DNA of 64,000 nucleotides from an uncultured Verrucomicrobiales bacterium (GCA_949372665.1 CASIAV010000031.1:8699-72698); one strand, 5' to 3'. Positions 267 to 63,079 are shown, counted from the first letter of the stretch. Notes: generated by a model not told the origin, from the letters alone. A program made the numbers and translations.

Positions 267-1616
267 TTATCCGACAAGTTCCTTCATAGGAGCGTGTTGG
301 GAATCAACAAGGAAACGGGGGCGACCTGTAAGATCGTCGATCGTGGTGCGGCGGGCATCGATGCCAAGATTATGGTAAAGAGTCGAAAAGACTTCCTGGA
401 ATTCGACAGGTCGGTCATCGGCTTCTCCGCCATCACGAGTCGTGGATCCAATGACTTGCCCGTGGGTCATGCCTCCGCCGGCAAGGAGAGCCGTTGAGAC
501 TTTCGGCCAGTGATCACGCCCGCCTTTGTCGTTGATTTTTGGAGTGCGTCCGAATTCGCCCCAGACGACAACTGAGACATCGTCGGAGAGACCGCGGTCG
601 TGGAGGTCCTGGACGAGCGCGGTGATGCCTTGGTCGAGGAGAGGGAAATCAGTACGCGCACGACCGAAGTTGTTGCCATGCCAGTCCCATCGAGAGAAGC
701 CTAGGGTGACGCAGCGGGCTCCGGCTTCGACGAGTCGACGGGCCATCAGGAACTGATCGAGCCGCTTCCAAGGCCCATCTGCAGTGAGTTTCTCGGTTCC
801 TTTTCCATAGCGCTCGACCATCTTGGGGTCTTCCTTGGAAAGATCAAAAGCCTCGGCGAGCCTTGAGGAAGTGAGAACCCCGAAAGCTTGTTCGGTGAAA
901 GTGTCCATCCCTGTCATGGCACCAGAGGAGTCGACATCTCGCCGGAAGTTGTCGAAGGATTTTAAGAGAGCTTTGCGGTCCGCAAGTCGTTCGATGGAGA
1001 TATCTTTAAGGATCATATCATCCTTTCCGCCTCCGCGGAACGGCGCGAAGGCTGCGTGGGAAGGCCCAAGGAAGCCTGGCTTACCTGGGTCGCCCCATTG
1101 GTCGTGTCCGCATTTTGGCGAGAGGCCGAGAAATGAGGGGACTCCTGGAGTGACTTGGCCCTGAAGCTTGGAGAGGACAGCGCCGATCGAAGGCCAACCG
1201 CCAGAGGGTTGAGGGCCCTGAAGTTTTCGACCGGTCAGGCACTGGACTGCGTCGTGTCCTCCACCGGCCCCAACCATCGAACGGATGACGGAAAATTTGT
1301 CCATCATACCAGCCATTTTTGGGAAGAGTTCTCCAATTTGGATGCCTGGGACGTTAGTGGAGATAGGATTAAATTCGCCACGAATACCGGAGGGAGCTTC
1401 AGTTTTAATGTCCCACATGTCTTGGTGTGGCGGGCCGCCAGCGAGGAAAACCATGATGACCGCCTTGTGTTCTAGCTTTTTAGGCGTGGTCGCTTCGGCT
1501 TGGAGCAGTTGAGGAAGGGAGGCTCCGCCGAGACCAAGACCCCCGATTCGTAAGAAGCCACGGCGGGTCATGCCGTCGCAGAAAGCTTCGCCTTTGGATC
1601 CGGATATTGTGAGCAT
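267..1616 (-). CDS. DUF1501 domain protein (alkaline-phosphatase/sulfatase-like superfamily), Tat-signal
   Basis: 449-aa ORF with RR leader [16 protein letters not shown] (alternative start at 1571). It has the motifs [13 protein letters not shown] and WGEFGRTP...GRDHWP, shared with the four other DUF1501 paralogs in this window. Confidence 0.85.
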
Positions 1617-1676
1617 AGTACGTTTCTAAGGTATTGTTCTTCCTACGTAAAAGAGTTGAGAGATCTTTCTGGATGA

Positions 1677-2045
1677 GTTTTTTGGCTTCTTGGCCATCGT
1701 AAGAACAGGTGTTTACGACTAGGACGGGGAAGTGAGATCCACTTTACCAAGCCTCCCAGGAAGGCAGCCATGGCAAAATCAGTTCAAGTGAAGTCATGGT
1801 TTTACACCAACACCGCGGAGTATGGTTCTCCCGAGCACGACGTTCGTGAAGACTCTGTCGCTTCCACTGAACTTTCCGATGATGGTCTGACCCTGGGTGT
1901 AAAATTAAAGGGGTTTGGCAAAGGGGATTGCTGGCTGGACCGAATTTATCAGATCACTTTCCCGAAGACAGAAGATGCCTTTGGAAAACACTCAGCTTGG
2001 GAAAGGCTTCAGGCCTTCTTCACCTTGCGTGCGATTCCGAAGTGA
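1677..2045 (+). pseudogene. 3' remnant of a beta-propeller dehydrogenase-like gene, paralogous to the C-terminus of 45932-47482
   Basis: The 91-aa ORF 1770-2045 plus the open frame upstream to the stop at 1674-1676 reads GSEIHFTKPPRKAAMAKSVQVKSWFYTNTAEYGSPEH...AWERLQAFFTLRAIPK. This aligns by eye with GFELVFTEPLHPDSLTPESLKVSSFTYQYSSRYGGDEI...AWYTLNRIPSD at the C-terminus of the 516-aa protein. There is no N-terminal propeller part and no signal peptide. Confidence 0.55.
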
Positions 2046-2721: not shown

Positions 2722-3057
2722 TCATTCGCGTTGTCCTCGGAGTTGAGCGGCACTGACCCTAATAAGCTGAACAACGAGCTTTCAGGATTCACAGATCAAC
2801 GACCTAATTTCGGATTGAAGTGGCTTTATTTAGTGGTCTCCCAATCTCGATTGTTTGAAATAAGCTTTCACACCAGAGAAATTGAAGGAGGAGTCCAAGA
2901 ATTACGATGTGGATCTTAAGAACGCCCCCCCCCTGCATCTATGGGAACAACACACACACACGCACTAAACCACAGAACAGGGAGGAGCTTGCACTCCAGA
3001 GAAAATCATTAAAGTAAAGATAACTTGGGGGGGGCTCTGCATCGGGAACAAGGTAAT

Positions 3058-5756: not shown

Positions 5757-5776
5757 CTATTCGAAGTTTTAGACGA

Positions 5777-7105: not shown

Positions 7106-7270
7106 TTAGTTAGTAACTTGAACAATTTCAGTGGATATGCTTCTGGTCGCTTGTGACATTTTAGCGCTTGAATAAGCTTTTGGTAAAATTTAGGCCAAAT
7201 CAGTTTAAGAGCCAGATTATCGATTTTCTTTTGTTTGGGTGGCTTTAGCAGTTAGTCCTTAATCTTTGAG

Positions 7271-7284
7271 GATTATTAATAATC
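7271..7284. promoter_or_regulatory. Perfect 14-bp AT-rich palindrome GATTATTAATAATC, a candidate Fur-box-like operator
   Basis: The sequence is its own reverse complement. It lies in the AT-rich divergent intergenic region, 166 nt upstream of fbpA and 114 nt upstream of the 7398 gene. It resembles the GATAAT/ATTATC hexamers of Fur boxes. Confidence 0.35.
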
Positions 7285-7397
7285 TCGCCCTATTTTCTAA
7301 TTTGGATCTGATATCAGGGGATATCTTTATTGGCTTAAAGAGTGGGAAGATGAAAATCCTTTTGCTAGTCCTGATTTTGGAGAGATTTGATCGAAAG

Positions 7398-10202
7398 ATG
7401 AAGAAGAGCCTTTCAATTGTATTCAGCATTGCGTGCCTGATGGGGCCGGCAGCTCTTGCTGCTATTGCTGACGAGAAGGCGTTAGAGATTTTTGAGCACT
7501 ACTGCTTCGATTGTCACGGCGACGGCTCGGACAAAGGGGGGCTGGATCTCTCTGTGATACTCGGGAAAGAGGACTTCGATGGTTCTCTGATTTTTGAGAA
7601 TTTGGTGACGGGGAAAATGCCTCCCGCGGACAAAGATCAGCCGGATGCAAAGGAGAAGCGAGAGCTGCTGGAATGGCTCGCTGGTCGGCAGGGAAAGCAT
7701 GTTGAGAAATCCTTCCGTCGTCTTAGTCGGTATGAATTTGTTCATTCGGTGAATGATTTGTTGAGGACAGACCTCGATCTTGCCGGAAAAATTCCCGAAG
7801 ACCGGGGGACGAACGATTTTGATTCCAATCGCAAGATCAAGTTGAGCCGTGAGATGCTGGGATCGTATTTTTCAGTGGCAGACGAAATGCTCGATCATGC
7901 CTTTCCGGATGATGGGTTTCCCGCGGAGAGGAGCTGGGTCACGAACAAGGTCCGAGACAGTCATGAGAGCTACCGGATCTACCATCGGCCCTATCAGGAA
8001 GGCGCCCTTTTCTCGTGGACCCGGGCCAACAATGGCAACAGCTATTCTTTCTTCTACGACAACTTTGAGCCCCCGGTGGCAGGCTGGTATGAGTTGACAT
8101 TTGATGCCGCTAAGGTGGCCGACTTCGAAGACGATATGAGCCTGCAAGTTTATGCGGGAAAGTATTACTATGCCGATGACCGGCCGCAGCTGCAGCGTTT
8201 ACTGGGGGTGGTCTCGTTGGGGAACAAGAAATTGGAATCGTATCCCATCCGCGCCTACCTCCATCCCGGAGAAAGCGTTTCGGTGCACTGCTTTTCGCGG
8301 CACAATTTTCGTCAAAAGAATCCAAAGGAGGGAATCTACATCAAGCAATTGAAGGTCCGGGGGCCGGTGGTGGATTCATGGCCTCCGACGTCTTATCAAC
8401 AAGTCTTCGATGGATTGAGAATTGAGGCCGGGCAACGGAAGGCCCAAAAGGCTTCCGGGTTCCAAACTGAGCTCAAGCGGATCGGCGGCGTGTTTACGGT
8501 AAGTAGTTTTCAGGAGGGGATGGAAAAGGAAAGGATGCAGGATGGTTCGAATCTGACCTTCTGGCACACGCGCTTCTCTCCCTCAGTGGCGAAGCCGCCG
8601 CATTATGTGATTTTTGAAAACCCGAATGGAGCGGTCATCGAAGGACTTTCTTTTGCGACCTGGTCGGGCGGAAATGGCAATGGCTTGGTCAAGGCATACG
8701 AGATTTACTTTTCCGACGATGGAAAAACGTGGGATGATAAGGTGATGGAAGGTGGACTGGATGTCAGGCTTGCCAACGAACAAGCGGTTATCTTTCCGCA
8801 GGAAACGACCAGTCGCTTTATCAAGTTCCAGGTGACGGCCTCCGTTCAATTAGATGGGAAATCAATCGCTTCGATTGGCAAGTTGGACCTTATCACTCCT
8901 TTGGTTGAACAGGTTGAAACGTCCACGGTTACAGTTGCTTCAAGGAACCCCGATGATTTAAAAAAAGTGATTCGCCGTTTTGCGAAGCGAGCTTTTGCGT
9001 CGACTCTCAGTGAGGAGGAATTGGCGCCATACTACCGGGTTGGACTTCGCCGACTTGAGGAGAGAGGCGACTTTGTCGAGGCGACCAAGGTTGGGCTAAA
9101 GGCTATTCTTTGTTCACCAAGATTCCTGATGGCGCCCGGGGAGCATGCCAATTCGTCGTTTGGCAAAGCCTCGGATCTCGCTCGTATTTTGTGGCTTTCG
9201 GTTCCCGATGAGGAACTTTTGAAGTTGGCTGTTTCAGACTCGCTTCATGGCGCGACCTTGAATGATCAAATTCAGAGAATGTTGGCCGATAAGCGCAGCC
9301 GCCGCATGGTTCGCTCCTTCAGTGATCAGTGGCTGAATCTGCGTGGCCTCAATAAGGTGGCGCCTTCCTTGAAACTCTACCCGCTTTACGATGACCTTCT
9401 GAATTACTACCTCCCCATCGAAACCCGGAAATACCTTCAGCATTTGATCCATGAAAATCTTCCCGCCCGAAATCTCATCGATTCGAATTTCACTTTTCTC
9501 AATCAACGGCTTGCCCGGCACTACGGGATCAAGGGAGTGACTGGACAAAAAATACGCAAGGTAAACTTTTCAGACGAAGTGCCCCGTGGCGGACTTCTCA
9601 CGATGGGGAGTGTCTTGAAAGTGACGACGGATGGCTTCGAAACCTCGCCCATTTTACGGGGAGCCTGGATCTCCAAAAATATTGTGGGCACGCCGCTCTC
9701 GCCACCGCCGGAGAGTGTTCCGGCCTTGGAACCGGAACACGGAGAAGCAAAGACGCTCAAGGAACAGATCGATCAGCACAAAAGCAACAAGACTTGCTAC
9801 GCCTGCCACAAGAGTATCGACGGGTATGGCTTCGCATTGGAGAGCTTTGATGCCACGGGGGGATGGCGTGATCAATATCGGGTTAAGCAAGCCCATGGAG
9901 GCACTTTTCAGTATCGTCCTCAAGGCTACTTTAAGAGGGGTGCACCAGTTGATGCATCCGGAGAGATCGACGATGCCAGCTTCCAGGACATTTTTGGGCT
10001 CAAGAAGGTTTTGCTCTCCAGCGAGCGGAAGCTTGCCTATAACTTTGGGAAGAAGTTTTTCGAATACGCCTATGGAGACAAGCCGGATTTGAGCCAGCGC
10101 CTTCAGTTGTGGGACTTTTTTGGAACGAATCCTGGAAACCTACGACTGGGAACTCTCATGACCCACGTCCTTACTCATTCAACGAACGGAAAAGAGAAAT
10201 GA
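7398..10202 (+). CDS. Large secreted two-CxxCH protein of DUF1587/DUF1595/DUF1592/DUF1588/DUF1585 type with an inserted F5/8 type C (discoidin) domain
   Basis: Start chosen at ATG 7398 (MKKSLSIVFSIACLMGPAALAA signal) rather than the track start 7266. N-terminal CFDCHGDG. SRYEFVHSVNDLL (DUF1587-like). SPRFLM (DUF1592-like). SPILRGAWISKNIVGTPLSPPP (DUF1588-like). CYACHKSIDGYGFALESFD (DUF1585-like). Confidence 0.85.
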   Translation: MKKSLSIVFSIACLMGPAALAAIADEKALEIFEHYCFDCHGDGSDKGGLDLSVILGKEDFDGSLIFENLVTGKMPPADKDQPDAKEKRELLEWLAGRQGKHVEKSFRRLSRYEFVHSVNDLLRTDLDLAGKIPEDRGTNDFDSNRKIKLSREMLGSYFSVADEMLDHAFPDDGFPAERSWVTNKVRDSHESYRIYHRPYQEGALFSWTRANNGNSYSFFYDNFEPPVAGWYELTFDAAKVADFEDDMSLQVYAGKYYYADDRPQLQRLLGVVSLGNKKLESYPIRAYLHPGESVSVHCFSRHNFRQKNPKEGIYIKQLKVRGPVVDSWPPTSYQQVFDGLRIEAGQRKAQKASGFQTELKRIGGVFTVSSFQEGMEKERMQDGSNLTFWHTRFSPSVAKPPHYVIFENPNGAVIEGLSFATWSGGNGNGLVKAYEIYFSDDGKTWDDKVMEGGLDVRLANEQAVIFPQETTSRFIKFQVTASVQLDGKSIASIGKLDLITPLVEQVETSTVTVASRNPDDLKKVIRRFAKRAFASTLSEEELAPYYRVGLRRLEERGDFVEATKVGLKAILCSPRFLMAPGEHANSSFGKASDLARILWLSVPDEELLKLAVSDSLHGATLNDQIQRMLADKRSRRMVRSFSDQWLNLRGLNKVAPSLKLYPLYDDLLNYYLPIETRKYLQHLIHENLPARNLIDSNFTFLNQRLARHYGIKGVTGQKIRKVNFSDEVPRGGLLTMGSVLKVTTDGFETSPILRGAWISKNIVGTPLSPPPESVPALEPEHGEAKTLKEQIDQHKSNKTCYACHKSIDGYGFALESFDATGGWRDQYRVKQAHGGTFQYRPQGYFKRGAPVDASGEIDDASFQDIFGLKKVLLSSERKLAYNFGKKFFEYAYGDKPDLSQRLQLWDFFGTNPGNLRLGTLMTHVLTHSTNGKEK

Positions 10203-11434
10203 AGCAATACCGCCGAAGAGAGTTTTTGAGGTTTGGAGCGGCCCTTCCGTTGGCTTTGCATTCGCTGAATGCGCGGGCGGCAAGCGCCCTAGGAGTGGAA
10301 GCCCCGCCGAAACGGGTCATCTTCATTTGCAATTCGCTCGGTTTCTATGAACCAAATTTCTTTCCCACCAAGCGGGGGGACTTGACCAGTTCCAAGTATC
10401 TCAAAGAGATGGCAGTGAGGGAGAAAATGACGATTTTTCAAAACTTCTTTCACCCGGGGATGGAGACTAGCAACCATGATTCGGAAAAGTCTTTCCTGAC
10501 CGGAGCGCCGAGTCCCGAAGCCACGAATTTCACCAATACTATTTCGCTCGACCAGATCCTCGCCCGCGAGATGGGTGGTGACACGCGATTTCCGTATCTT
10601 TCCTTCAGTATCTACGACCGTGGCTGGGGATGCTCCTGGAATGATCGCGGGGTGGCCATTCCACCGATGCATGACGAACGGCAGATCTTTGAACGGCTCT
10701 TTGGTGAAGAAGATCTGAGTGCGAAGCGCCAACAGATCGAGAACGACCAGCAGATCGTGCACTCCCTCTACCGCGACATGGAGCAGATCAAGAAGAAGGG
10801 AGGAGGCGATGCCTCGAAGATCGAATCCTACCGGACCGTCATTTCAGAACTGGAAGCGCAATTGAAGCACGAGGAATTTTGGCTCAAAACCAAAAAGCCG
10901 GAAGTTCCTAATACCTTGAGCGATGACCAGGAATTCGCTTTCTCGACCAAGGTCCGCAATCTCTTTGAGCTTTCCAAACTGGCGTTGCAGACGGACTCGA
11001 CGAGAGTCATTACGCTCTCGCTTGATTGGATTTATGGCGCGATCAATGTTCCCGGCGCGACGGGGGGATGGCACACCCTTTCGCACCACGGAGGCAAGGC
11101 TGATGCGCTCGGCAAGCTCAGCCGGATCGAAGTCGACATCGTCAAACATCTCGACCGCTTTCTCGCTGAGCTCGATCAGATCGACGAAGGAGAGGGGAGT
11201 TTGCTGGACCATACCACCGTGGTGATCGGGAGTAATTTTGGTGATTCTTCAAATCACACCTGCAACAATCTCCCGACAATCGTGGCAGGTGGCGGTTACC
11301 GTCATCAAGCCCACACCGTTCTCGAAAAGCCGACTCCTCTTTGCAATCTCTACCTGGAGCTGCTCCACAAACACAATGTGGACTTGGGTGCCTTCGGAAG
11401 TAGCGAGAAGGACCTCGGTTTGCTTAAAGGGTAA
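10199..11434 (+). CDS. DUF1552 (HXXSHH) domain protein, Tat-signal
   Basis: Start at ATG 10199, overlapping the upstream TGA (ATGA). RR leader MKQYRRREFLRFGAALPLAL. Signature WHTLSHHGG. Confidence 0.85.
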   Translation: MKQYRRREFLRFGAALPLALHSLNARAASALGVEAPPKRVIFICNSLGFYEPNFFPTKRGDLTSSKYLKEMAVREKMTIFQNFFHPGMETSNHDSEKSFLTGAPSPEATNFTNTISLDQILAREMGGDTRFPYLSFSIYDRGWGCSWNDRGVAIPPMHDERQIFERLFGEEDLSAKRQQIENDQQIVHSLYRDMEQIKKKGGGDASKIESYRTVISELEAQLKHEEFWLKTKKPEVPNTLSDDQEFAFSTKVRNLFELSKLALQTDSTRVITLSLDWIYGAINVPGATGGWHTLSHHGGKADALGKLSRIEVDIVKHLDRFLAELDQIDEGEGSLLDHTTVVIGSNFGDSSNHTCNNLPTIVAGGGYRHQAHTVLEKPTPLCNLYLELLHKHNVDLGAFGSSEKDLGLLKG

Positions 11435-11643
11435 ATCGGATCCATTATGGGATCTTCATCATCGTGACCTTTGAGATTCCTTCGTCATTACAGGCGACCA
11501 GAGGGGCGGCGACTCATTCCAAGGGCAGGGAGAGGCCAAGTAGCTTGCAAAGGTAAAGCATCAGGCAGGTGGCCTTCTTCAAGTGCTTATTATCCATTGA
11601 CCTTTACCCCTGAGTCACTACATCGCTTGGATTGAATTGGGTC

Positions 11644-21039: not shown

Positions 21040-21117
21040 CTGACATCAGAGTCTTAGAAGTCCGTGTGGGAAAAAAATCTGGAAAGCTCACATCAAAATT
21101 ACCGTAGTAAATACCTA

Positions 21118-39910: not shown

Positions 39911-39932
39911 AGAAAATTTTCTTTGGGACCTC

Positions 39933-41009: not shown

Positions 41010-41082
41010 TCCGTATCGTGATTTCTTTTTCGCCCGATCTTTCTGCCTCGACCCGGGGAAAAGGCGTCCCTATTCTTCTACG

Positions 41083-53211: not shown

Positions 53212-56200
53212 ATGGAAGAGGGCCCAGATCAGAGCTGGCCATATCTACCGCTGAAAGATAGGGTGCCCCCTTCGTCTCTTAGATTGGTTATGGTGCTTTT
53301 AAAGATTATTAACCCCGCCTCATTAGCTAAGCGCCTCCTTCTTCTAAGTGCTCTTGGAAGTTATCTCTTGGTGGGGCTTTTATCGCTGTCAGCTGATTCT
53401 CATCTTGCAGAGCAAAACTTGTTAGCAGGTGCTCACGTTCAGGATATCACACCTCCTTTTGATTCTCTTTTGATTAATGGAGGGTTTGTTGAAAGAAGAC
53501 GGGGGAAGATGCAGCCGGGTGATCTCAAGGCGCGTTGTTTTGTTTTACAGCGTGGTGAAGTCAGCATCGCGGTGGCAGTGGTCGATAGCTGCATGATTCC
53601 TCGGGATGTTTGTGACCGGACAAAAGCTCTGGCATCACAAAAGACTGGAATTCCCATTGATCAAATCGTCATTGCAGCGACCCATACCCACTCTGCTCCG
53701 AGCACGATGGATTATTGTTTGGGAACAATGGCAGACCCGGCTTACACCGAATTCTTACCGAGTAAAATTGCGGAGGGGATTGTGAAGGCCTATGGGAAAA
53801 TCGAGCCAGCGCAAATTGGTCACAAGCAAGTGAAAGCCACTGGCTACAATTACAATCGGCGCTGGATCACGCGGCCAGATCAAATGCAAAGAGATCCCTT
53901 TGGTGATAAAACGGTCCGAGCTATGATGCATCCTGGATTTCGAAATCCAAAATACGTCGGACCTTCCGGCCCGGTTGACGATGAATTGTCTGTCTTATCG
54001 ATTCAGGCTTTGAATGGTGATCCGATTGGCGTTCTCGCGAATTTTTCGATGCACTACCATGGCGGTGGGGGAGGCCCCGCGGATTACTTTGGTCTTTTTT
54101 CTGATCGGCTTGCTAAGCAGTTGGCTGTCGGAGGGCGTGAGCCTGTGTGCGCCATGACTCAGGGCACGAGCGGAGACCTGCATTTGCGAGATTATGAAGG
54201 CGATCGAACTAATTCAGATATCTCGATCTATACCGATGGGCTGGTTGAGATTGCCAAAGGGGCAGTTGAAAAGGTTCGTTATGACCGAAGTCCCCTGCTC
54301 GGGATGGACCAGAAAGAGCTCACGCTTTCACGGCGATTGCCTGACGCGAAGCGTTTGGCTTGGGCTGATAAAATGCTCTCTGAAATGAAAGGGCAAAGGC
54401 CCAAAAACCGCCCCGAAGTTTACGCGGAACAGGCTCGATACATTCATAAAAACCCCACTGAAAACCTTGTCTTGCAAACGCTACGGATTGGAAATTTGGG
54501 GATTACGACAATTCCCAATGAAGTTTACGCCATCACGGGCCTTAAGCTCAAAGCCTGGAGCCCATTCCCTTCGACCTTTAATATTGAATTGGCGAACGGG
54601 GCCGCGGGATACATTCCGCCTCCTGAACAACACGCTTTGGGAGGTTACACCACTTGGCCGGCTAGGACTGCTGGGTTAGAGGTGGAGGCCGAGCCAAAGA
54701 TCGTTGAGACTTTGTTGAGCTCTTTTGAATCTCTCGCAGGAAAACCCCGTCGACCGTCGCTGAGGCATCAAGGAGATTACGTAAAATGGATCATGGCGCA
54801 AAAACCTTTGGCCTACTTTCAGTGTGAGGATTTGGGAGGGGGCACGTTGGACGATGCCTCTGGCCAAGGTCGTAGCGGGCATGTTGAGGGGGTGGTGGCT
54901 TATCATCTTCCGGGGCCTGAGTGTCAGGCTATTTCTGAACAAAACTCAAATAATGCTCTTCAGCTGGCAGGTGGACGTATTTCAGTCACGGTTCCAAAGG
55001 CCCGAACATTATCCTTTTGGTTTTGGAATGGCATGAGTAATACGGTGCGAGACCATACCGGTGACCTTGTGCAGCATGGGGTGTCTCGCTTTCTGCGGAT
55101 TGGCGGCAAGGCGGATGGGGAGTCTAGTGGTTCTTTAATTTTACAAGATGGTGAAAAACGTTTTTTTGGTAAGACAAAGTTAGCCTTAAAAGCATGGCAT
55201 CACGTGGTAATGTCCCAAGAGGAGGAAGAGGTGAAGATTTATCTTGATGGCCACATCATACCAGAAGTGAGTGCCCCTCTTACCCCGTCTGAATCTGAGC
55301 AATGGCACTTGGGGGGGGAGTTGCCAGTCGAAGGGCGCCTCGATGAAGTCGCTTGGTTTAAGGGCGCCTTTAGCCAAAAAGAAGCGGCCCGAAATTTTTC
55401 TGCTTCAAGGATGACTCCACCCGCGCGCCCTGCTCCGCCCCGTCCAAAGTATGACCGCGGTGCGATGGCTGGTTATCAAAAATCAGTTTTGGCTTCTCAA
55501 CCATCAGTCTGGATCGAACACGGAAATGAGGCTTCTCAGCAGCGCGTTCAGAAAAAATTTGAAGGGATCGAAGATGTCTACACTGTAGAATTTTGGGTTC
55601 GCAACCAACTTCCAAATCAAATCCGTCCGGTTACTGCCTACTTGTTTTCGCGAGGAGTGGATGGCATGAAAGAGGCGGAAGGAGACCATCTTGGTATTGG
55701 GGGATCACACCTTGCAGCGGGAAAATTAATTGTTTTTCAGGGGAACCGGAGCGGGGGGCTATTAACGGGAGTGACTGAGCTTGAACCAAATAGCTGGCAT
55801 CATCTCGCCATGATTCGTGAGGGAGAGCGGGTGCGAGTGTATTTGAATGGAAGATCTGAACCTGAAATCGATGGGACCCTTGCTCGCACTTATCCGGATG
55901 GGCATCCTGAGTTTTTTTTTGGAGGCCGAAGCGATCGCTTTTCTATTCTTGAGGGGCGCCTTGATCACGTTGCTTTATATGATCGGGCTCTCTCGATTGT
56001 TGAGATTTCGGAGCATTACGAGGCAGTTAATTTGCTGCCAAGCGAAAAGAATTTAGAGGAAAGTAATTCCGGGGCCCTTTCGCCACAGGATGCTCTCTCA
56101 AGCATACATGTCCCTGAGGGCTATCGAATTGAGTTGGTGGCGAGTGAGCCGTTGATCAAAGATCCCGTCGCAATTGATTGGGGGGCTGATGGCAAATTAT

Positions 56201-58848
56201 GGGTTGCGGAGATGGCAGATTATCCCTCTGGAGTTGATGGAAAGCCTGGAGGACGTGTGCGTTTTTTGGAGGATCTTGATGGGGATGGGAAATACGAAAA
56301 ATCGACTCTTTTTCTCAAAGGGCTCAATTACCCTGCGGGAATCATGTCTTGGCGCAGTGGAGTAATTGTAGCGGCCGCGCCTGATTTGATCTATGCGCAA
56401 GACACCACTGGTGACGGTAAAGCTGATCTCCAAGAAGTGCTCTATTCCGGATTCAAGCAAGGCAATCAACAGCTACGAGTCAATGGATTGAGCTGGGGTT
56501 TGGACAACTGGATTCATGGTGCCAATGGGAGTCACCATCCTGGGTATGCAAAAAATACCATGATTCATTCTTCGCGAGCAGGAAGCACTTTACCACTAGG
56601 TAGTATGGACTTTCGAATTCGTCCCGATGAGGGGCTGATGGAAGCTCTCTCTGGACCTTCTCAATTTGGCCGAGCGCGCGATGATTGGGGGAATTCGTTC
56701 GGGGTGCAGAACAGTTTCCCCCTTTGGCACTATGTTTTGGAGGAGCGCTATTTGACTAGGAACATTAATTTTGCACCACCTGAAATTCGTCGTCAGCTTC
56801 GCCCTCAAAATCCGCGAGTGTTTCCAGCGTCATCCCTCCAGAAACGGTTTCACAGTTTTAATCAATCTGGGCGTTTCACGAGTGCTTGTTCGCCGATGAT
56901 TTATCGTGATCGACTTTTGTTTGACGACGAGCAGGTGCATGCTTTGACCTGCGAGCCCTTTCATAACTTAGTGCAGCGAGTCGTGTTGGATCGTGATGGC
57001 TACAGCTTTAAAGCCAAGCGGGCAGAAGAAGGAGCCTTTGATTTTTTTGCTTCTGAGGACAGATGGTGTCGCCCGGTGATGGCCCGAACTGGTCCAGATG
57101 GTGCCGTGTGGGTAGTCGACATGTATCGATATATGATTGAGCATCCCGAGTGGTTGCCTGACGAGGGGAAAAGAGAAATGAAAGCGCACGAGCGCAAGGG
57201 GTCTGGTTACGGGCGGATTTATCGTATTTTGCCCAAGGATGAGCCGGTCCGGGAAATCCCAGATCTGGCGAAGGTTGCTCCCAAAAATCTTGTGAGGTAT
57301 TTGGCAAGTCCAAATGGAATTGTGCGAGATCTTGCTCATCGCCTTCTTGTCGAAAGAAAAGCGGTTTCGGTGACTGGTCAGGTTTCGAAGATGGCCTTAA
57401 AACATCCGAGTCCTAGAGCTCGTTTGCACGCTCTGTGTGTGCTCGATGGAATCAATCGATTGACTCTGGAGATCCTCTATTCCGCGTGCAAGGATCCCCA
57501 TCCTCAACTTCGTCGTCATGCCGTTCGTCTTGCGGAATATCGCTGGGCTAAAGAGCCTGAATTAGTCGTAGCCGTCTCGGAGATGATCGATGATGTTGAT
57601 TTAGGGGTGCGCTTGCAGGTGGCTTGCTCATTAGGCAACTCAAAGAGACCTGAAGCGGGCCATGCTCTGGCTGCCTTGGCGGTAGATAATGCCGCGGACC
57701 CTATGATTAGGGCGGCAGTGATGAGCTCGCCTCCGCATCATTTTATTGCCCTAGCCGAGCGAGCTCTTGATCAAGGGGTGTTGGTTGACGAGCTCATTAA
57801 AGTGGCTGGGGCTAAAAACCATGCCGCCTTAGAAGCACTGGTTACCCGACTCTCCCAGCCTGGCAAAGAAGGCTTCCAACCGGTGCAATTCCAATCGCTG
57901 AGCCATTGGGCTGATCTTCATCCCCAAGCTTCAGTAAGTCTCAGTCATGTGATTGGGGAGGCACGCAAAATCGTCCGCATGCCAGGGGGATCGAGCCCGC
58001 TTAAAATTGCCGCAATTAGCTTATTGGGAAGAGAGGAAAACAAATTTAAGAGCGACCGAGATCTCTTAGGAGAATTACTTATTTTGTCGGAATCCAGCGA
58101 AATGAAATTTGCGGTGATTGAAGCTCTTGCGAGAATGGGTGGACCGGACATACCACGCCTTATGATTGGTTCTTGGAGTGGATGTTTTCCTCGAGAAAGG
58201 TCAAAAATTATGGACACCCTCCTCCAGCGAAAAGAGTGGGCGATGACAATGCTCAAAGCGATAGGACAAGGTCAAATTTCGCCAGAAGCAGTTGATGTTT
58301 CGAGGCGCCAGATCCTGCGAACTCATGCGGATGCCGGGATTAAAAAGATGGCAGAGGAGTTGTTTCCCTCTCATGGAGGACTGACACGAGCGCGGCAGCT
58401 CAAGAAATTCCGTTCTGCTTTGGAACTTAAAGCGAATCCTCAAGATGGGCGAGCGGTGTTCAATCGAGCCTGTGCGCATTGTCACCTTTCGGTAAAGGGT
58501 CTCCCCATGAATGGGCCAGACCTACGCTCCATTACAGAGCGTAGCAAGGAGGGTCTCTTCACCTCAATTTTAAATCCTAACGAATCAGTGGACCCTTCTT
58601 ATTTCGGTTATTCAGTGACTCTTAAAGACGGTAAAATGCTCTTTGGAAGGGTTCTTGCAGAAAAGGAGAACAATCTCACTTTGAGACTTCTTGATGGTAG
58701 TGATCGTCAGATTCTCCGAAAAAGAATTAAAGGTTTAGACACAAGTGGGCGCTCGCTTATGCCAGATGGTCTCGAGCTTGGTATGACCCACCAAAATCTT
58801 GCTGACCTGATTGGATTTTTACAAACCTTTGGGCGCGAAGGTGAATAA
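53212..58848 (+). CDS. 1878-aa fusion protein: neutral-ceramidase-like N-terminal domain, two LamG domains, PVC-type dehydrogenase-like propeller, HEAT repeats and a C-terminal CxxCH heme domain
   Basis: The start is uncertain (53212, or Met at 53290). Ceramidase-like VAVVDSCMIPRDVCDRT...IVIAATHTHSAPS. LamG-type GRLDEVAWFKGAFS and GRLDHVALYDRALS. IHVPEGYRIELVASEPLIKDPVAIDWGADGKLWVAEMADYPSG. HEAT-like repeats. ACAHCH...SLMP. Confidence 0.8.
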   Translation: MEEGPDQSWPYLPLKDRVPPSSLRLVMVLLKIINPASLAKRLLLLSALGSYLLVGLLSLSADSHLAEQNLLAGAHVQDITPPFDSLLINGGFVERRRGKMQPGDLKARCFVLQRGEVSIAVAVVDSCMIPRDVCDRTKALASQKTGIPIDQIVIAATHTHSAPSTMDYCLGTMADPAYTEFLPSKIAEGIVKAYGKIEPAQIGHKQVKATGYNYNRRWITRPDQMQRDPFGDKTVRAMMHPGFRNPKYVGPSGPVDDELSVLSIQALNGDPIGVLANFSMHYHGGGGGPADYFGLFSDRLAKQLAVGGREPVCAMTQGTSGDLHLRDYEGDRTNSDISIYTDGLVEIAKGAVEKVRYDRSPLLGMDQKELTLSRRLPDAKRLAWADKMLSEMKGQRPKNRPEVYAEQARYIHKNPTENLVLQTLRIGNLGITTIPNEVYAITGLKLKAWSPFPSTFNIELANGAAGYIPPPEQHALGGYTTWPARTAGLEVEAEPKIVETLLSSFESLAGKPRRPSLRHQGDYVKWIMAQKPLAYFQCEDLGGGTLDDASGQGRSGHVEGVVAYHLPGPECQAISEQNSNNALQLAGGRISVTVPKARTLSFWFWNGMSNTVRDHTGDLVQHGVSRFLRIGGKADGESSGSLILQDGEKRFFGKTKLALKAWHHVVMSQEEEEVKIYLDGHIIPEVSAPLTPSESEQWHLGGELPVEGRLDEVAWFKGAFSQKEAARNFSASRMTPPARPAPPRPKYDRGAMAGYQKSVLASQPSVWIEHGNEASQQRVQKKFEGIEDVYTVEFWVRNQLPNQIRPVTAYLFSRGVDGMKEAEGDHLGIGGSHLAAGKLIVFQGNRSGGLLTGVTELEPNSWHHLAMIREGERVRVYLNGRSEPEIDGTLARTYPDGHPEFFFGGRSDRFSILEGRLDHVALYDRALSIVEISEHYEAVNLLPSEKNLEESNSGALSPQDALSSIHVPEGYRIELVASEPLIKDPVAIDWGADGKLWVAEMADYPSGVDGKPGGRVRFLEDLDGDGKYEKSTLFLKGLNYPAGIMSWRSGVIVAAAPDLIYAQDTTGDGKADLQEVLYSGFKQGNQQLRVNGLSWGLDNWIHGANGSHHPGYAKNTMIHSSRAGSTLPLGSMDFRIRPDEGLMEALSGPSQFGRARDDWGNSFGVQNSFPLWHYVLEERYLTRNINFAPPEIRRQLRPQNPRVFPASSLQKRFHSFNQSGRFTSACSPMIYRDRLLFDDEQVHALTCEPFHNLVQRVVLDRDGYSFKAKRAEEGAFDFFASEDRWCRPVMARTGPDGAVWVVDMYRYMIEHPEWLPDEGKREMKAHERKGSGYGRIYRILPKDEPVREIPDLAKVAPKNLVRYLASPNGIVRDLAHRLLVERKAVSVTGQVSKMALKHPSPRARLHALCVLDGINRLTLEILYSACKDPHPQLRRHAVRLAEYRWAKEPELVVAVSEMIDDVDLGVRLQVACSLGNSKRPEAGHALAALAVDNAADPMIRAAVMSSPPHHFIALAERALDQGVLVDELIKVAGAKNHAALEALVTRLSQPGKEGFQPVQFQSLSHWADLHPQASVSLSHVIGEARKIVRMPGGSSPLKIAAISLLGREENKFKSDRDLLGELLILSESSEMKFAVIEALARMGGPDIPRLMIGSWSGCFPRERSKIMDTLLQRKEWAMTMLKAIGQGQISPEAVDVSRRQILRTHADAGIKKMAEELFPSHGGLTRARQLKKFRSALELKANPQDGRAVFNRACAHCHLSVKGLPMNGPDLRSITERSKEGLFTSILNPNESVDPSYFGYSVTLKDGKMLFGRVLAEKENNLTLRLLDGSDRQILRKRIKGLDTSGRSLMPDGLELGMTHQNLADLIGFLQTFGREGE

Positions 58849-58894: not shown

Positions 58895-60286
58895 CTAGGC
58901 GATGATGCCGCGTTCCACGTTCCCGGCGACGTCGGTAAGTCGGAAGTCACGGCCAGCGTAGTTGTAAGTGAGCTGTTCGTGGTCAAGCCCAAGGAGATGG
59001 AGCATCGTAGCGTGGAGGTCATGCATGTGAAGTCGGCCGCTCACCGCGGTGTCACCCACTTCATCGGTTGCCCCGTGGGCGTGACCTGGTTTAGTGCCTC
59101 CTCCGGCTAACCAAGTCGTGAAGCCGCGTGGGTTGTGGTCGCGGCCGTCCTTGCCTTGTGAGAAGGGTGTGCGTCCAAACTCTCCGCCCCACCAGACAAG
59201 GGTGTCTTCCAGAAGGCCGCGCTGTTTGAGGTCTTTTAAAAGTCCGGCCACGGGCTGGTCGGTTGCGTGAGCGTGGACCTTGTGCTTGGGCATGTTGGAA
59301 TGTTGGTCCCAGCGTGGATTAACTGACTCATCGGAGTAGTTAACTTGGATAAAACGGACTCCGCGCTCTGCGAGCCGGCGGGCCATTAGGCATTGTCTGC
59401 CATAGTCGTCGGTCGCTTTTTCGCCAATCCCATACATGGATTTAGTAGCTTCAGATTCTTCCGCGAGGTCGAGAATGTCGGGGGCATTCATCTGCATCCG
59501 GAAGGCAAGGTCGAAGGAGTCGATAGCAGCGTTGATATTTTGATCGTTTTTGGTTTGCGCCTGCTGTCGGTTCAGTTGTTGGAGGAAGTCGAACTGTTTT
59601 GACTGAGCGTTGAGGGGAAGGTGTGGGTTTTTGAGATTTCTGATGGTGGCTTTTGATGCAGGAAGTCCGGCTCGGCCAATGCAGGTGCCTTGGTGGACAG
59701 CTGGGAGAAAAGCATTGGAGTAGTTGCGCGGTCCGCCCTTGCTGGCGGAGGGCATAATGGTGACAAAGCCAGGAAGGTTCTCGTTTTCGGTTCCCAGACC
59801 ATAGGTGATCCAGCTGCCCATGGAGGGGCGGACTAAGTTAGTCGCTCCGGTATGAAGAAAGAGGGTGGAGGGGCCGTGCGCCACCCCTTCGGTATGCATG
59901 GAATGTATAAAGCAGAGATCATCGACATGCTTTGCGATGTGGGGAAAGAGAGAGCTGACCCAGCGACCGGATTCACCGTGTTGCTTGAAATCCCAAAGCG
60001 GTTTGAGAAGTTTCCGTTGGGATTTTTTGCCGAAGGTGTTTTTGCGGACACCCACGAAATCAAAAGATTGTCCGTCGCGTTTGATAAGCCCGGGCTTGTA
60101 GTCGAAGGAGTCAACATGGGAGGGCCCTCCAGCCATGAAGAGAAAGATGATCCTTTTAGCGCGAGCTGGTAGGACAGGAGATTTTGGAGATAGAGGGTTG
60201 CTGAGACCTTTGCCTAAAAGGGAGGAAAGCGCGAGGGAACCGAATCCACAACTGGACGATTTTAGCAGCTGGCGACGGTTGAGCAT
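58895..60286 (-). CDS. DUF1501 domain protein, Tat-signal
   Basis: Start at ATG 60286 (MLNRRQLLKSSSCGFGSLALSSLL) rather than the low-complexity track start 60547. [22 protein letters not shown]...GRDHNPRGFTTWLAGGG. Confidence 0.9.
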   Translation of the reverse strand: MLNRRQLLKSSSCGFGSLALSSLLGKGLSNPLSPKSPVLPARAKRIIFLFMAGGPSHVDSFDYKPGLIKRDGQSFDFVGVRKNTFGKKSQRKLLKPLWDFKQHGESGRWVSSLFPHIAKHVDDLCFIHSMHTEGVAHGPSTLFLHTGATNLVRPSMGSWITYGLGTENENLPGFVTIMPSASKGGPRNYSNAFLPAVHQGTCIGRAGLPASKATIRNLKNPHLPLNAQSKQFDFLQQLNRQQAQTKNDQNINAAIDSFDLAFRMQMNAPDILDLAEESEATKSMYGIGEKATDDYGRQCLMARRLAERGVRFIQVNYSDESVNPRWDQHSNMPKHKVHAHATDQPVAGLLKDLKQRGLLEDTLVWWGGEFGRTPFSQGKDGRDHNPRGFTTWLAGGGTKPGHAHGATDEVGDTAVSGRLHMHDLHATMLHLLGLDHEQLTYNYAGRDFRLTDVAGNVERGIIA

Positions 60287-60332
60287 AGGCTGAAGGTTTG
60301 GTTTTGTGACATGAACTATCCCGCTGTGTGGT

Positions 60333-61283
60333 TTAGTTGATGAAGCGAAAGTCGATGGTTGAGAAGAGAGCTTGAGTGAGTTGGGTCCAAGCTTCTGTTT
60401 TTTGTTCGGGGGGGAAGCTGGCGAGAAAGGTTTGAGAGGAGAGGCGTTCGCTTTCGGAGGGAGGACGGGAGAGGATGAGGAGGTAAGTATCTTCGACGGT
60501 TCCCGCTTCGGCGAGAAGTCTTTTGGCGGTGAGTTCTGACTGCTCACGTATAAAGGGGCTGTTCATGAGGAAGAGTGCCTGGGTGGGGAGGTTGGTGGTG
60601 GAACGCCGTCCTACCACAAGATTTGGATTTGGGGCGTCGAAGACCTCAAAAATAGGGAGCATGGAATTGCGGAACCACGGGACATAGACACTCCGGCGGT
60701 TCGAATCAAAATGGTAGTTGAGGTCGTACTGTCCAGCATTTCGAATCGTCGGCCCGCCCTTGATGGGATCAAATTGTCCGCTGAGGTGAAGAGCGGTGTC
60801 GCGAATAGCCTCGGCTTCAAGGCGCTTACGATGAGCTCGACCAAAGAAGCGGTTTTCAGGGTCGCTAGGGTCAGCAGTTTTCGAGGATAGCTGATAGGTT
60901 CGACTCAGGACGATTTCGCGGATGAGTGATTTGATTGACCAATTATTTTCGGTGAACTGGATCGCTAGATGGTCGAGCAGTTTAGGATGACTTGGCAATT
61001 CTCCTGTTTTCCCAAAGTTGTCGACGGTGCGCACGATGCCTTCACCGAGGAGATATTTCCAAATGCGGTTTACCATGACTCGAGAAGTGAGCGGATGCTG
61101 AGGATCAGTGATCCATTCGGCGAGTTCAAGCCGCCCGGAATGACCTTCCGGAATTTCGTGGGATGTTCCGGCTTGGGAGGCGACGGTGATGAAACCCCGC
61201 GGAACCTTGGCTCCTTTGTTGCGGACCAGGCCGCGGATGTGGACGTGCCCGTCTGCGATCGTCTCGGCTTCGGTCGGCGCCAT
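60333..61283 (-). CDS. DUF1553 (PSD1) C-terminal half of a split DUF1549/DUF1553 gene
   Basis: 316 aa. LELAEWITDPQHPLTSRVMVNRIWKYLLGEGIV...GELPSHPKLLDHL matches the C-terminal halves of the intact paralogs. It starts 20 nt after, and in a different frame from, the stop of 61304-63079. Confidence 0.8.
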   Translation of the reverse strand: MAPTEAETIADGHVHIRGLVRNKGAKVPRGFITVASQAGTSHEIPEGHSGRLELAEWITDPQHPLTSRVMVNRIWKYLLGEGIVRTVDNFGKTGELPSHPKLLDHLAIQFTENNWSIKSLIREIVLSRTYQLSSKTADPSDPENRFFGRAHRKRLEAEAIRDTALHLSGQFDPIKGGPTIRNAGQYDLNYHFDSNRRSVYVPWFRNSMLPIFEVFDAPNPNLVVGRRSTTNLPTQALFLMNSPFIREQSELTAKRLLAEAGTVEDTYLLILSRPPSESERLSSQTFLASFPPEQKTEAWTQLTQALFSTIDFRFIN

Positions 61284-61303
61284 CGTGATGGGTTGAAGCT
61301 TCT

Positions 61304-63079
61304 TTAATTTAGCCGTGAGTATTTGTGTCGGCTTTCAAGTTTCTTAAGATTAGCTTTGGACTTCTGTGGAATTACAGAATTTGGTGTGATGAAAGCTACG
61401 GCATCGGCGATGACATGGGCCGTGGTTTTCTCGGTGGAGATGACGATGGATGCCGGCTTTTCGCTTGAGAATGGAAATGTTCCAACGTTGGTAAATGTTT
61501 CCCAGATAGAAGCCTGCTTCGATTGGTCAATGATAACAGTCGTTGTGCCTTCGGCGTGGTGAATGGTGACAGGAACGTTTTTGGCACGATTGGGGCCTGA
61601 ACTGTAGGCGACCAGAACTTCATAGTCGCGATTTCCCCCAAGAGTGGTGGTGAACTTGGCTCTCTTTTCTCCCTTACCGGTATTTTCGTCGTGGAGGTAG
61701 CTCTTGCCGATCCAAGGTTTTGTAGCGGTGGATTCCTTCCACTTTCCGGTTAATTTCGCTTCGGTAGAATCAATGATGATTCCAGGAAATTTTTTTAGAT
61801 CAGGTGAGCTTTTGAGTGTATCAATTTGTTTTTTGAGAGAGTCGATCGAACTGCGGAGCTGTGTGATCTCGGCAGGATTGGAAATTGCGAGAGGGTTGGT
61901 GGCGAAGGAAGTGACTCCGGAGGCGGCGCTGCCTTTACCCATGGAGCGCGTGCTTTGAAAGATGCCCGCAAGGGCGTAGTAGTCAGAAGTAGGGATGGGG
62001 TCAAACTTGTGATCATGGCAGCGGGCGCAGCCAAGAGTCATTCCGAGGAAGGTGCGCCCGACCGTGTCGATTTGCTCGTCGACGAATTCCATTTTGAGAA
62101 GTTCGTGATCTTGTAGTTCGTAGTTGAGTGCGCCAAGGACGAGGTAACCCGAGCCGATGAGTTGGGAATTTCGTTGGATGGGGGTCGAGTGGGAAAGGAG
62201 GTCTCCGGCAAGATGCTCGCGGACGAGTTGGTGGTAAGGCTTGTCCTTGTTAAATGAGTCGATTACGTAGTCACGGAAACGCCAAGCATCGGGAAAGACG
62301 AGGGAGCGGCCACCACCGGAGGATTCGGCAAAGCGGGTGATGTCGAGCCAGTGGCGGCCCCATCGTTCTCCAAATTCTGGACGAGCGAGGAGGTGAGCGA
62401 CGATGGTTTGGAACGCTTGCGAGGACTTGTCCCGAAGGAAGGCTTTCAGTTCGTCAGGCGAAGGTGGCAGCCCGATAAGATCGAAGTAAACGCGACGAAG
62501 AAGGGTGGTTTTCGATGCGCGTCTCGAAGGAGTGATTTTTTGGGCTTCGAGTCGGGCCAGGATGAAGCGGTCGATATCGTTGGCTGGCCATGCGGTATCG
62601 CGGGGTTTCGGGATTGGGTGGGCCACGGGAGGTTGGAAGGACCAAAATTGGCGCCCTTTATTGAGGTCGATTTGGGAAGTGGTTTTTTTGGTTTTGTTTT
62701 CGCGAGGGTCAGGGGCACCCATCGCAATCCATGACTTGAGATGCTGAATTTTAGAATCTGGGAGCCGGTTTTTAGGTGGCATTTCTAAGTCGCTATTGGT
62801 GTAGGAAATGGCGTTGAGGAGAAGGGAGTCCTCGGGTTTTCCAGGGATAATAGCGGGGCCGGAGTCACCGCCGGTTTGCCACCCGGTGCGTGAATCAAGG
62901 TAGAGGTTGGCTTTCAGCTCCTTAGCGTCGGCGGAGTGACATTCGTAACAGTGCTCGACAAAGAGAGGACGAATGTGGGTTTCAAAATATTCAATACCCT
63001 CCGAATTATTGGCGTGAACCATCGAGCCACTCGCGAGAAAGGCGAGAGTGATTTTTAGCTGACGTAAGTTGCCAAACAT
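61304..63079 (-). CDS. PSCyt1-DUF1549 N-terminal half with a golvesin-C-terminal-like beta-sandwich insert (split gene)
   Basis: Signal peptide. HCYECHSAD. GCARCHDHKFDPIP. The insert reads IIIDSTEAKLTGKWKEST...YLHD...DYEVLVAYSSGPNRAKNVPVTIHHAEG...IWETFTNVGTFPF...HVIADAVAFI. The ORF ends where the paralogs continue into DUF1553. Confidence 0.8.
   Translation of the reverse strand: MFGNLRQLKITLAFLASGSMVHANNSEGIEYFETHIRPLFVEHCYECHSADAKELKANLYLDSRTGWQTGGDSGPAIIPGKPEDSLLLNAISYTNSDLEMPPKNRLPDSKIQHLKSWIAMGAPDPRENKTKKTTSQIDLNKGRQFWSFQPPVAHPIPKPRDTAWPANDIDRFILARLEAQKITPSRRASKTTLLRRVYFDLIGLPPSPDELKAFLRDKSSQAFQTIVAHLLARPEFGERWGRHWLDITRFAESSGGGRSLVFPDAWRFRDYVIDSFNKDKPYHQLVREHLAGDLLSHSTPIQRNSQLIGSGYLVLGALNYELQDHELLKMEFVDEQIDTVGRTFLGMTLGCARCHDHKFDPIPTSDYYALAGIFQSTRSMGKGSAASGVTSFATNPLAISNPAEITQLRSSIDSLKKQIDTLKSSPDLKKFPGIIIDSTEAKLTGKWKESTATKPWIGKSYLHDENTGKGEKRAKFTTTLGGNRDYEVLVAYSSGPNRAKNVPVTIHHAEGTTTVIIDQSKQASIWETFTNVGTFPFSSEKPASIVISTEKTTAHVIADAVAFITPNSVIPQKSKANLKKLESRHKYSRLN

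Follow-up and report, generated by a model that had tools for sequence, protein, structure and literature searches.

Paired cytochrome-type and DUF1501 or DUF1552 genes in an uncultured Verrucomicrobiales bacterium: a published module whose small subunit is predicted to be a rebuilt sulfatase-fold protein

What does a two-gene module do that occurs in eight copies and takes up nearly half of a 64-kb stretch of bacterial DNA? We addressed this question for 64,000 nucleotides from an uncultured Verrucomicrobiales bacterium (GCA_949372665.1 CASIAV010000031.1:8699-72698), a stretch which we call the window; the large gene of the eighth copy lies mostly beyond its edge. Each copy consists of a large gene, whose product is of the PSCyt/PSD type, and a small gene, whose product carries a twin-arginine (RR) leader and belongs to family DUF1501 (kind 1) or DUF1552 (kind 2). 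Our analysis showed that these pairs are ordinary members of the published PSCyt/PSD plus DUF1501 and PSCyt3/PSD plus DUF1552 modules of the Planctomycetota-Verrucomicrobiota-Chlamydiota (PVC) type. Our best guess at their function, held tentatively and at somewhat less than even confidence, is that the two products of a pair form a periplasmic enzyme that relies on electron transfer.

All open reading frames (ORFs) of the window of at least 150 aa, excluding those nested in larger ones, were tabulated and scanned with Pfam. An earlier interpretation made from the DNA alone, here the sequence-only reading, had described two kinds of pair in four and three copies and had named their families; Pfam agreed with it, and the profile search that it had proposed assigned all of the families. 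DUF1501 (PF07394) was found in five full-length genes (285-531 bits; gathering cut-off 27) and DUF1552, also named HXXSHH (PF07586), in three (117-233 bits; gathering cut-off 30). All four kind-1 large genes scored above the gathering score for PF07635, PF07583 and PF07587, although in gene d these three PSCyt group II matches are spread over the two halves of a frameshifted ORF. PF07627 and PF07631 were above it in all three kind-2 large genes, as expected of PSCyt group III, while PSD5 in kind-2 large gene b and PSD2 in kind-2 large gene a were below the Pfam cut-off. The E-values of the main domains across the seven pairs inside the window ranged from 1e-26 to 1e-159. In the kind-1 pairs a DUF1501 gene is directly adjacent to a PSCyt group II gene on the same strand, and in the kind-2 pairs a DUF1552 gene is likewise adjacent to a PSCyt group III gene. 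The gene pairs cover 30,425 of the 64,000 bases, close to the roughly 30 kb estimated before, and the statement that most pairs overlap at start and stop held as well, with ATGA at five of the seven large/small junctions inside the window. From this layout each pair is predicted to be co-transcribed and mostly translationally coupled. Every CxxCH and RR leader quoted earlier was present, but kind-1 small gene a reads AGSPSQID and not the quoted GGPSH(I/V)D. None of the four protein families of the module received an informative name from NCBIfam.

The pairing is conserved far beyond this genome, as the sequence-only reading had proposed to check. A DUF1501 profile was run against one genome per species and a DUF1552 profile against metagenomes, and all ORFs of the resulting 160 loci were scored with hidden Markov models (HMMs) built from the window's own proteins. 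In 62 of 69 testable loci the end of a kind-1 large gene lay upstream of DUF1501 at a distance of no more than 500 bp, and for a kind-2 large gene and DUF1552 this held in 44 of 49 testable metagenome loci. Cross-type adjacency (kind-1 large gene with DUF1552, or kind-2 large gene with DUF1501) was seen in none of the testable loci. The 80 closest DUF1501 loci included about 24 from Planctomycetota, 20 from Verrucomicrobiota, 24 from Bacteroidota/Rhodothermales (all aerobic lineages) and 8 from Acidobacteriota; given the last two groups, the module is not specific to the PVC superphylum. Four loci with implausible taxonomic labels, L080 (Nitrosopumilus), L007 (Acidimicrobiia), and L044 and L063 (Akkermansia muciniphila from lake samples), were left out of the evidence on distribution; they are probably mis-binned or mislabelled. 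A single DUF1501 query matched 12,603 clusters (50% identity, E <= 1e-10). The nearest named relatives, 83-90% identical, belong to Roseibacillus, Akkermansiaceae and Verrucomicrobiales. The paralogues of the window are only 40-51% identical to one another, and the kind-1 small protein b (S1b) has a nearer relative in a Planctomycetaceae protein (63%) than among the other copies in the window. Recent tandem duplication is ruled out by the divergence of the paralogues. The pairs are thus old subfamilies lying side by side, and of the earlier term 'amplified' the multiple copies stand while a recent local origin does not.

This genomic pattern is already known, so the novelty that had been claimed for it falls away. 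Kamneva et al. 2012 (PMC3542564) described the locus of DUF1501 with PSCyt1/PSCyt2/PSD1, its Tat (twin-arginine translocation) leaders and signal peptides, lectin-type inserts, a four-gene variant and the amplification. He et al. 2017 (PMC5615132, Text S1) reported both kinds of pair and their multiplication, counted up to 71 copies per genome and called the function unknown; published copy numbers reach 41 to about 70 per genome. In the literature we found no functional study of the DUF or PSCyt families, in agreement with the earlier statement that no function had been shown, and later papers merely cite Kamneva or He. The homology of DUF1501 and DUF1552, the His at the formylglycine position and the DUF2231-PSCyt1 partner, all described below, were not seen in those two papers, leaving aside the clan status of PF07586.

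All eight small proteins of the window have a twin-arginine motif (consensus S/T-R-R-x-F-L-K) followed by a hydrophobic stretch, and the RR is 94-97% conserved across 94 DUF1501 and 88 DUF1552 sequences. The cut-off of the TIGR01409 HMM was passed by S1b (20.0 bits against 16.7) and the kind-1 small protein c only. An AF2 model of S1b (pLDDT 80.4, pTM 0.83) matched LtaS, arylsulfatase A, phosphonate monoester hydrolase and Escherichia coli alkaline phosphatase upon Foldseek search with probability 1.0, though with TM scores of just 0.3-0.38 and about 10% identity. In hhalign, DUF1501 aligned with S1 sulfatases (seeded by the sulfatase of the window) at 92% probability. These results point to an alkaline-phosphatase/sulfatase core fold for DUF1501, the superfamily in which it had been placed before.

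The pocket, however, seems to have been rebuilt. In the profile alignment the sulfatase C-A-P-T-R, which holds the formylglycine Cys, corresponds to H151-D-P-G-I of DUF1501; the DD after strand 1 is without counterpart, the strand being followed by G63-G64; S-D-N-G becomes G-E380-F381-G; the His of 'PHxP' corresponds to H339, and the region of the catalytic Lys to G-R395-D-H397. H151 lies after strand 139-145 and two residues before helix 153-158 in the S1b model, which is the place of the superfamily nucleophile. H151, D337, H339, E380, R383, R395 and H397 were present in 72 of 74 diverse full-length DUF1501 representatives, among which S66, D69 (or Glu) and D72 were nearly invariant. T146 was rejected as an alternative nucleophile, being Thr or Ser in only 43 of the 74. 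By this alignment DUF1501 has His where the superfamily has Ser, Thr or formylglycine, has G-G and E-F where it has metal ligands, and does not carry the C/S-x-P-x-R signature of family S1. An invariant His at the nucleophile position together with the loss of the calcium ligands argues that these proteins are not classical hydrolases, and the 'hydrolase-like catalytic partner' proposed by the sequence-only reading is no longer the default.

DUF1501 and DUF1552 aligned over 350 columns at 97% probability (hhalign). The invariant H98 of DUF1552, within G-D-H-A-R-x-x-A-x-F-L-T-G, aligns with H151 of DUF1501, WDQH with HHxLSHH and GRDHH with DGNxH. The two families are therefore homologous end to end in profile alignment, so that both kinds of pair share one ancestral small subunit. 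It is probably a sulfatase-fold protein whose pocket has been rebuilt, still looks functional and is without the classical nucleophile. An invariant His at the putative formylglycine position is common to both families, and the apparent loss of the canonical calcium ligands applies to DUF1501. Compared directly with S1 sulfatases, DUF1552 gave 1% in hhalign, which is not significant, and its link to the fold runs via DUF1501 only. A sequence search of the PDB with shallow and deep profiles of both families found no solved relative; the matches, all of them weak (E 0.02-1.4), were confined to the C-terminal motif of LtaS, ENPP4 and sulfatases.

Conservation in the large subunits was assessed in 65 kind-1 and 58 kind-2 proteins. 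The first CxxCH of kind 1 (C40/C43/H44) and an M88-P89 about 45 residues downstream were 97% conserved, and the inner C-x-x-C-H-x-H-K-x-D-P was 100% conserved, as was the C-terminal C-x-x-C-H-x3-D-P-x-G-F of kind 2. PSCyt1 resembles in this respect a class I cytochrome c with His/Met ligation and is predicted to bind haem. The large products begin with a Sec-type leader. An AF2 model of the 958-aa kind-1 large protein (pLDDT 78.8) showed a beta-sandwich in the centre and a helical body towards each terminus. Upon Foldseek search of this model the beta-sandwich alone matched the PDB, namely CBM27, CBM32 and discoidin (probability 1.0), and no PDB structural neighbour was found for the helical PSCyt2 and PSD1 parts. 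Other paralogues have Laminin_G_3, Golvesin_C or F5_F8_type_C at the same position. The variable element is a carbohydrate-binding-type module; such inserts, resembling carbohydrate-binding modules (CBMs), are borne out by Pfam and Foldseek. The earlier word 'scaffold' for the large protein undersells the haem motifs, since CxxCH with a 97% conserved M-P is a cytochrome-c-type signature. With PSCyt1 removed, kind-1 and kind-2 large proteins gave only 17% in hhalign, which is not significant. No large-small fusion protein was present among the 240 homologues listed.

The CxxCH and Met-P pattern recurs in a gene that accompanies some pairs elsewhere. Among relatives of pair b the commonest neighbour was another PSCyt1 protein (10 of 112 neighbours), and about 18 of 80 related loci had a PSCyt1-level match in an ORF beside the pair. 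All eight such ORFs examined by Pfam combine DUF2231, PSCyt1 and leucine-rich repeats, sometimes with Fn3_assoc (L023, L026, L043, L051, L054, L068, L083 and L084; for example L084:7420-9534). Their hosts are Bacteroidota, Acidobacteriota and Opitutaceae, and the pair present there is most like pair b of the window. An NHL/SGL-type propeller gene often lies between the pair and the DUF2231-PSCyt1 gene, or the propeller precedes the fusion. DUF2231 is a membrane domain with His residues conserved in predicted membrane segments (H-P-x3-H-x-P, H-x3-G and H-x-G-x3-T-H-G). No DUF2231-PSCyt1 gene was found in the window. The CxxCH and M-P of PSCyt1, and its fusion to a His-rich membrane domain beside pairs, argue for electron transfer.

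In the two-subunit enzyme that we tentatively propose, the large product with its Sec-type leader and the small product with its twin-arginine leader would meet in the periplasm as a heterodimer. The variable insert would select the substrate, which is probably a sugar or oligosaccharide that bears decorations, the reaction pocket (S66, D69, D72, H151, D337, H339, E380, R383, R395 and H397) would lie in the small subunit, and the haems would shuttle electrons between this pocket and the respiratory chain. The reaction would be redox-assisted and not classical ester hydrolysis. We prefer this because the hydrolytic nucleophile and calcium ligands appear to be gone, because the haem motifs match the pocket in their degree of conservation, because a membrane-anchored PSCyt1 cytochrome accompanies some pairs, and because He et al. 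(PMC5615132) found these genes enriched in oxic-layer genomes. The propeller and cytochrome c gene directly upstream of pair b also supports electron transfer, and Kamneva et al. (PMC3542564) independently proposed electron transport. Several points weigh against it. Most pairs of both kinds are without a conserved third partner in our neighbour surveys. The active site was mapped from profile alignments and AF2 secondary structure, not from coordinates. To our knowledge all characterised enzymes of the alkaline-phosphatase superfamily are hydrolases or transferases and none is redox. Finally, the conserved Arg/Asp/His/Ser set would equally suit the binding and hydrolysis of anionic esters.

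In a model along the lines of the sequence-only reading, the small subunit would be a hydrolase or transferase that depends on a metal and attacks glycan sulfate, phosphate or similar esters, with the large protein mainly as a recognition scaffold whose haems are structural or regulatory and stay out of turnover. The fold, the CBM-like inserts, the sulfatases and SASA esterases nearby in the window and the sulfatases near relatives elsewhere (4 of 112 and 4 of 117 neighbours, thus inconsistently) would all fit, and the invariant Arg, Asp/Glu, His and Ser66 could hold a metal and an anionic ester. We nevertheless regard it as rather unlikely, though a serious contender, since an invariant His has taken the place of formylglycine, Ser or Thr, T146 is not conserved, and GG...EF stands for the calcium ligands DD...DN. 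It also gives no reason why two CxxCH and an M-P ligand should persist across thousands of paralogues, and leaves the membrane-anchored cytochrome beside some pairs unexplained. The loss of canonical catalytic residues would be easier to understand if the small subunit were a pseudoenzyme and the pair a periplasmic binding or sensing device, such as a glycan receptor for signalling through extracytoplasmic function (ECF) sigma factors or two-component systems, or for uptake. Inserts of protein-interaction and lectin type agree with this; so do the OmpR-type regulator at 63207-63863, which in related contigs next to pair d has a histidine kinase beside it, and an ECF-sigma link suggested for one R. 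baltica member (relayed in PMC2754498). But the near-invariance of ten polar pocket residues in 74 diverse representatives speaks rather for catalysis, a protein that only binds would hardly repay the expense of Tat export and two haem motifs, and at most loci no regulator is adjacent, so that we consider a receptor very improbable.

Compatible with either the hydrolase or the receptor is a further view, in which only PSCyt1 is a cytochrome and the inner CxxCH is a metal site or redox-active disulfide without haem. In kind 1, alignment positions C312, C315, H316 and H318 (C315, C318, H319 and H321 of the 958-aa protein) are all 100% conserved and could form a Cys2His2 site, and among PDB structures the helical fold around it has no neighbour that resembles a cytochrome. 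However, the second His is absent in kind 2, which leaves haem attachment as the feature common to both kinds, and CxxCH is perfect in all 65 and 58 sequences examined; a site without haem therefore seems improbable to us. One may speculate that DUF1501 and DUF1552 are together a large and so far unrecognised branch of the sulfatase/alkaline-phosphatase fold, with nucleophile replaced by an invariant His and calcium site rebuilt, that performs cytochrome-coupled chemistry on decorated glycans with a dihaem, CBM-bearing partner. This is a long shot; if true, it would define a new class of enzyme that processes carbohydrates in the periplasm, with tens of copies per genome in aerobic Planctomycetota, Verrucomicrobiota, Bacteroidota and Acidobacteriota.

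The features of the window are listed in the following table, with letters given to the pairs separately in each kind.

Table. Module genes and selected neighbouring genes of the window.
Feature	Coordinates	Strand	Description
Kind-1 large gene a	18037-20913	-	958 aa; Sec-type leader, PSCyt1, PSCyt2/DUF1549, central beta-sandwich, PSD1/DUF1553 (Pfam); CFACHGPD at residue 43, CAKCHSHKYDP at 315
Kind-1 small gene a	16544-18040	-	498 aa; DUF1501 (Pfam E 2.5e-148); TRRHFF leader; ATGA overlap
Kind-1 large gene b	24139-27126	+	995 aa; PSCyt1, PSCyt2, PSD1 (Pfam)
Kind-1 small gene b	27123-28556	+	477 aa; DUF1501; SRRAFL leader
Kind-1 large gene c	31125-33941	+	938 aa; PSCyt1, PSCyt2, Laminin_G_3 insert, PSD1
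Kind-1 small gene c	33938-35350	+	DUF1501; TRRTFL leader; probable ATG 33938, overlapping large-gene stop (mechanical ORF begins at GTG 33884)
Kind-1 large gene d	60333-63079	-	PSCyt1, PSCyt2, Golvesin_C insert, PSD1; frame broken in window
Kind-1 small gene d	58895-60286	-	463 aa from ATG 60286; DUF1501; NRRQLL leader; about 46 nt 3' of large gene
Kind-2 large gene a	7266-10202	+	PSCyt1 (CFDCHGDG), PSD3, F5_F8_type_C insert, PSD5, PSD4, PSCyt3 (CYACHKSIDGYGF), PSD2; probable ATG near 7398, ~934 aa
Kind-2 small gene a	10199-11434	+	~411 aa; DUF1552/HXXSHH; RRREFL leader; ATGA overlap
Kind-2 large gene b	11632-14115	+	~823 aa; PSCyt1 (CTNCHDAD), PSD5/PSD4, PSCyt3 (CWRCHKKMNPLGMP), PSD2
Kind-2 small gene b	14126-15490	+	454 aa; DUF1552; SRRHSI leader; 10-nt spacer with GGAG
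Kind-2 large gene c	41002-43710	+	902 aa; PSCyt1 (CYECHGRE), PSD3, Laminin_G_3 insert, PSD5, PSD4, PSCyt3 (CASCHVKIDPFGF), PSD2
Kind-2 small gene c	43707-44984	+	425 aa; DUF1552; GRRKFL leader; ATGA overlap; invariant H98 = DUF1501 H151 position
Fifth DUF1501	267-1616	-	449 aa; TRRGFL leader; first gene of Kamneva four-gene cluster
Eighth large gene, 5' end	1-244	-	First ~81 codons; starts MPKLPIIAAF; continues beyond window
Possible accessory gene	21064-24102	+	37 nt upstream of kind-1 large gene b; Pfam, NCBIfam
1472-aa protein	35492-39910	+	Lamin-tail domains, CotH kinase-like domain
Metallophosphoesterase	39867-41009	+	Directly upstream of kind-2 pair c, after 1472-aa protein
PVC-type propeller-like protein	45932-47482	-	516 aa; second cytochrome-linked operon
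Multi-CxxCH cytochrome c	47473-49560	-	695 aa; second cytochrome-linked operon
Xylose-isomerase-like TIM barrel	49557-50591	-	Second cytochrome-linked operon
1878-aa protein	53212-58848	+	Ceramidase-like N-terminus, two Laminin_G-type domains, DUF7133 (494 bits), HEAT, C-terminal cytochrome c motif

Four kind-1 large proteins had been counted, and four loci are indeed present, but the fourth is not a single ORF in the window owing to a 1-nt deletion. PSCyt1, PSCyt2 and Golvesin_C of gene d lie at 61304-63079 and PSD1 at 60333-61283, in different frames. Five contigs encoding an identical DUF1501 were fetched; four of them, one being GCA_028259545.1, have an intact gene d of 896-915 aa, and three aligned contigs were 99.9% identical to the window over this region with a single indel. 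Relative to contig L167 the window is without one A near 61325 (A3 instead of A4, within 61290-61330 on the minus strand). The break is thus an assembly error or a very recent lesion and no property of the module; a programmed frameshift or a truly split gene is ruled out by the four intact assemblies and the one indel. Gene d is fragmented in the fifth contig, L165, a long-read-style assembly broken in the same gene, which suggests homopolymer errors in that assembly type.

The possible eighth pair turned out to be real, and its partner gene could be completed in contigs L001-L004, where the DUF1501 is followed by an 831-aa Big_2-PSCyt2-PSD1 gene (11373-13868 in L001). The gene order in this pair is reversed, with DUF1501 first, and a gene with a PPC domain and then a PSCyt1-WD40 gene come after it in related contigs. 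All four genes follow an identical copy of 267-1616 in L001, L003 and L004, while in L002 the PPC gene is shorter. Within the window, segment 1617-7265 contains a discoidin/DUF4457-like gene and an ABC transporter (ATPase, permease and solute-binding protein). This segment is absent from L001, L003 and L004 (9428-10000), where DUF1501 and the large gene 7266-10202 are about 570 bp apart, and L002 (1-10000) has other genes in its place (sigma-70, DUF4457 and LTD-CotH). These differences are a strain-level rearrangement at the borders of pairs.

The gene upstream of kind-1 large gene b has a Rhamnosidase-N-like jelly roll, a PVC-type propeller-like region and a C-terminal CxxCH haem-binding domain, and matched TIGR02603 (92 bits) and TIGR02604 (74 bits) in NCBIfam; it may belong to module b. 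Kind-2 neighbourhoods were heterogeneous. Neither SusC/SusD, as in polysaccharide utilization loci, nor glycoside hydrolases were among the 25 commonest families in either neighbour set. Three SASA-type (sialate O-acetylesterase-like) esterases (15513-16532, 51159-51881 and 51997-53058, plus strand) lie among the pairs of the window, as does a family S1 sulfatase of 700 aa with a long N-terminal extension (28735-30837, minus strand); together these fit a role of the locus in the processing of decorated glycans. On the minus strand, 45932-50591 holds a second cytochrome-linked operon, whose genes overlap at their starts and stops. The 1878-aa protein is kept beside pair d in related contigs, and a metallophosphoesterase is also the nearest non-family neighbour of the pair in the metagenome contig L085, which encodes a DUF1552 with 87% identity.

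The module is very common and makes up a large share of the genome in abundant aquatic and soil polysaccharide degraders. Its PSCyt and PSD domains were reportedly defined by Studholme et al. in 2004, and more than 20 years after they were named no function has been assigned. If the module does prove to be a redox-coupled enzyme on a sulfatase scaffold, models of glycan turnover in marine and fresh waters would gain a missing route, and a well-studied superfamily a new chemistry. The question of function is worthwhile beyond this window, which by itself makes it no more testable than before. Concrete mutants and constructs to try do follow from the His in place of formylglycine, from the homology of DUF1501 with DUF1552 and from the membrane-anchored PSCyt1 partner.

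Among known systems two are analogies only. SorAB sulfite dehydrogenase joins a catalytic subunit exported by Tat to a c-type cytochrome subunit exported by Sec, and like the module it comprises two adjacent genes, one with a Tat leader and one with a Sec leader and CxxCH; the module, however, is without molybdenum or a known redox cofactor domain, has an alkaline-phosphatase-type fold, and has a cytochrome subunit of about 900 aa with CBM-like inserts. Lytic polysaccharide monooxygenases that receive electrons from a cytochrome domain act on glycans with a His-rich metal site, and their haem domain is joined to carbohydrate-binding modules, but there is no kinship in sequence or fold and no sign here of copper or oxidative cleavage. 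The family S1 sulfatases (PF00884), to which 28735-30837 belongs, share with DUF1501 an alpha/beta core and an alignable nucleophile strand-loop-helix, 'PHxP' His, SDNG strand and C-terminal helix. They differ in that C-x-P-x-R is replaced by H-D-P-x-x, DD/D-N by G-G/E-F and the Lys region by G-R-D-H, and with the identity and TM scores given above (~10%; 0.3-0.38) DUF1501 is not a member of the family.

The closest counterparts are the published modules themselves. 'Group II' and 'Group III' of He et al. (Text S1, Fig. S7b) likewise have PSCyt2 beside DUF1501 and PSCyt3 beside DUF1552, high copy numbers, CBM-type inserts and sulfatases nearby; their hosts are freshwater Verrucomicrobia, whereas the window comes from a marine relative of Roseibacillus/Akkermansiaceae, and the DUF1501-DUF1552 homology and active-site analysis are not part of that paper. 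From the modules of Kamneva et al. the window shows no essential difference: the Pfam domains, the gene adjacency, the twin-arginine leader of DUF1501 and the Laminin_G_3 and F5_F8_type_C inserts are alike, and their four-gene variant (DUF1501, Big_2-PSCyt2-PSD1, PPC protein, PSCyt1-WD40) is that of the window. That paper tied the module to intracellular membranes and regarded it as largely PVC-specific, but here about one third of the closest relatives are from aerobic Bacteroidota and about 10% from Acidobacteriota.

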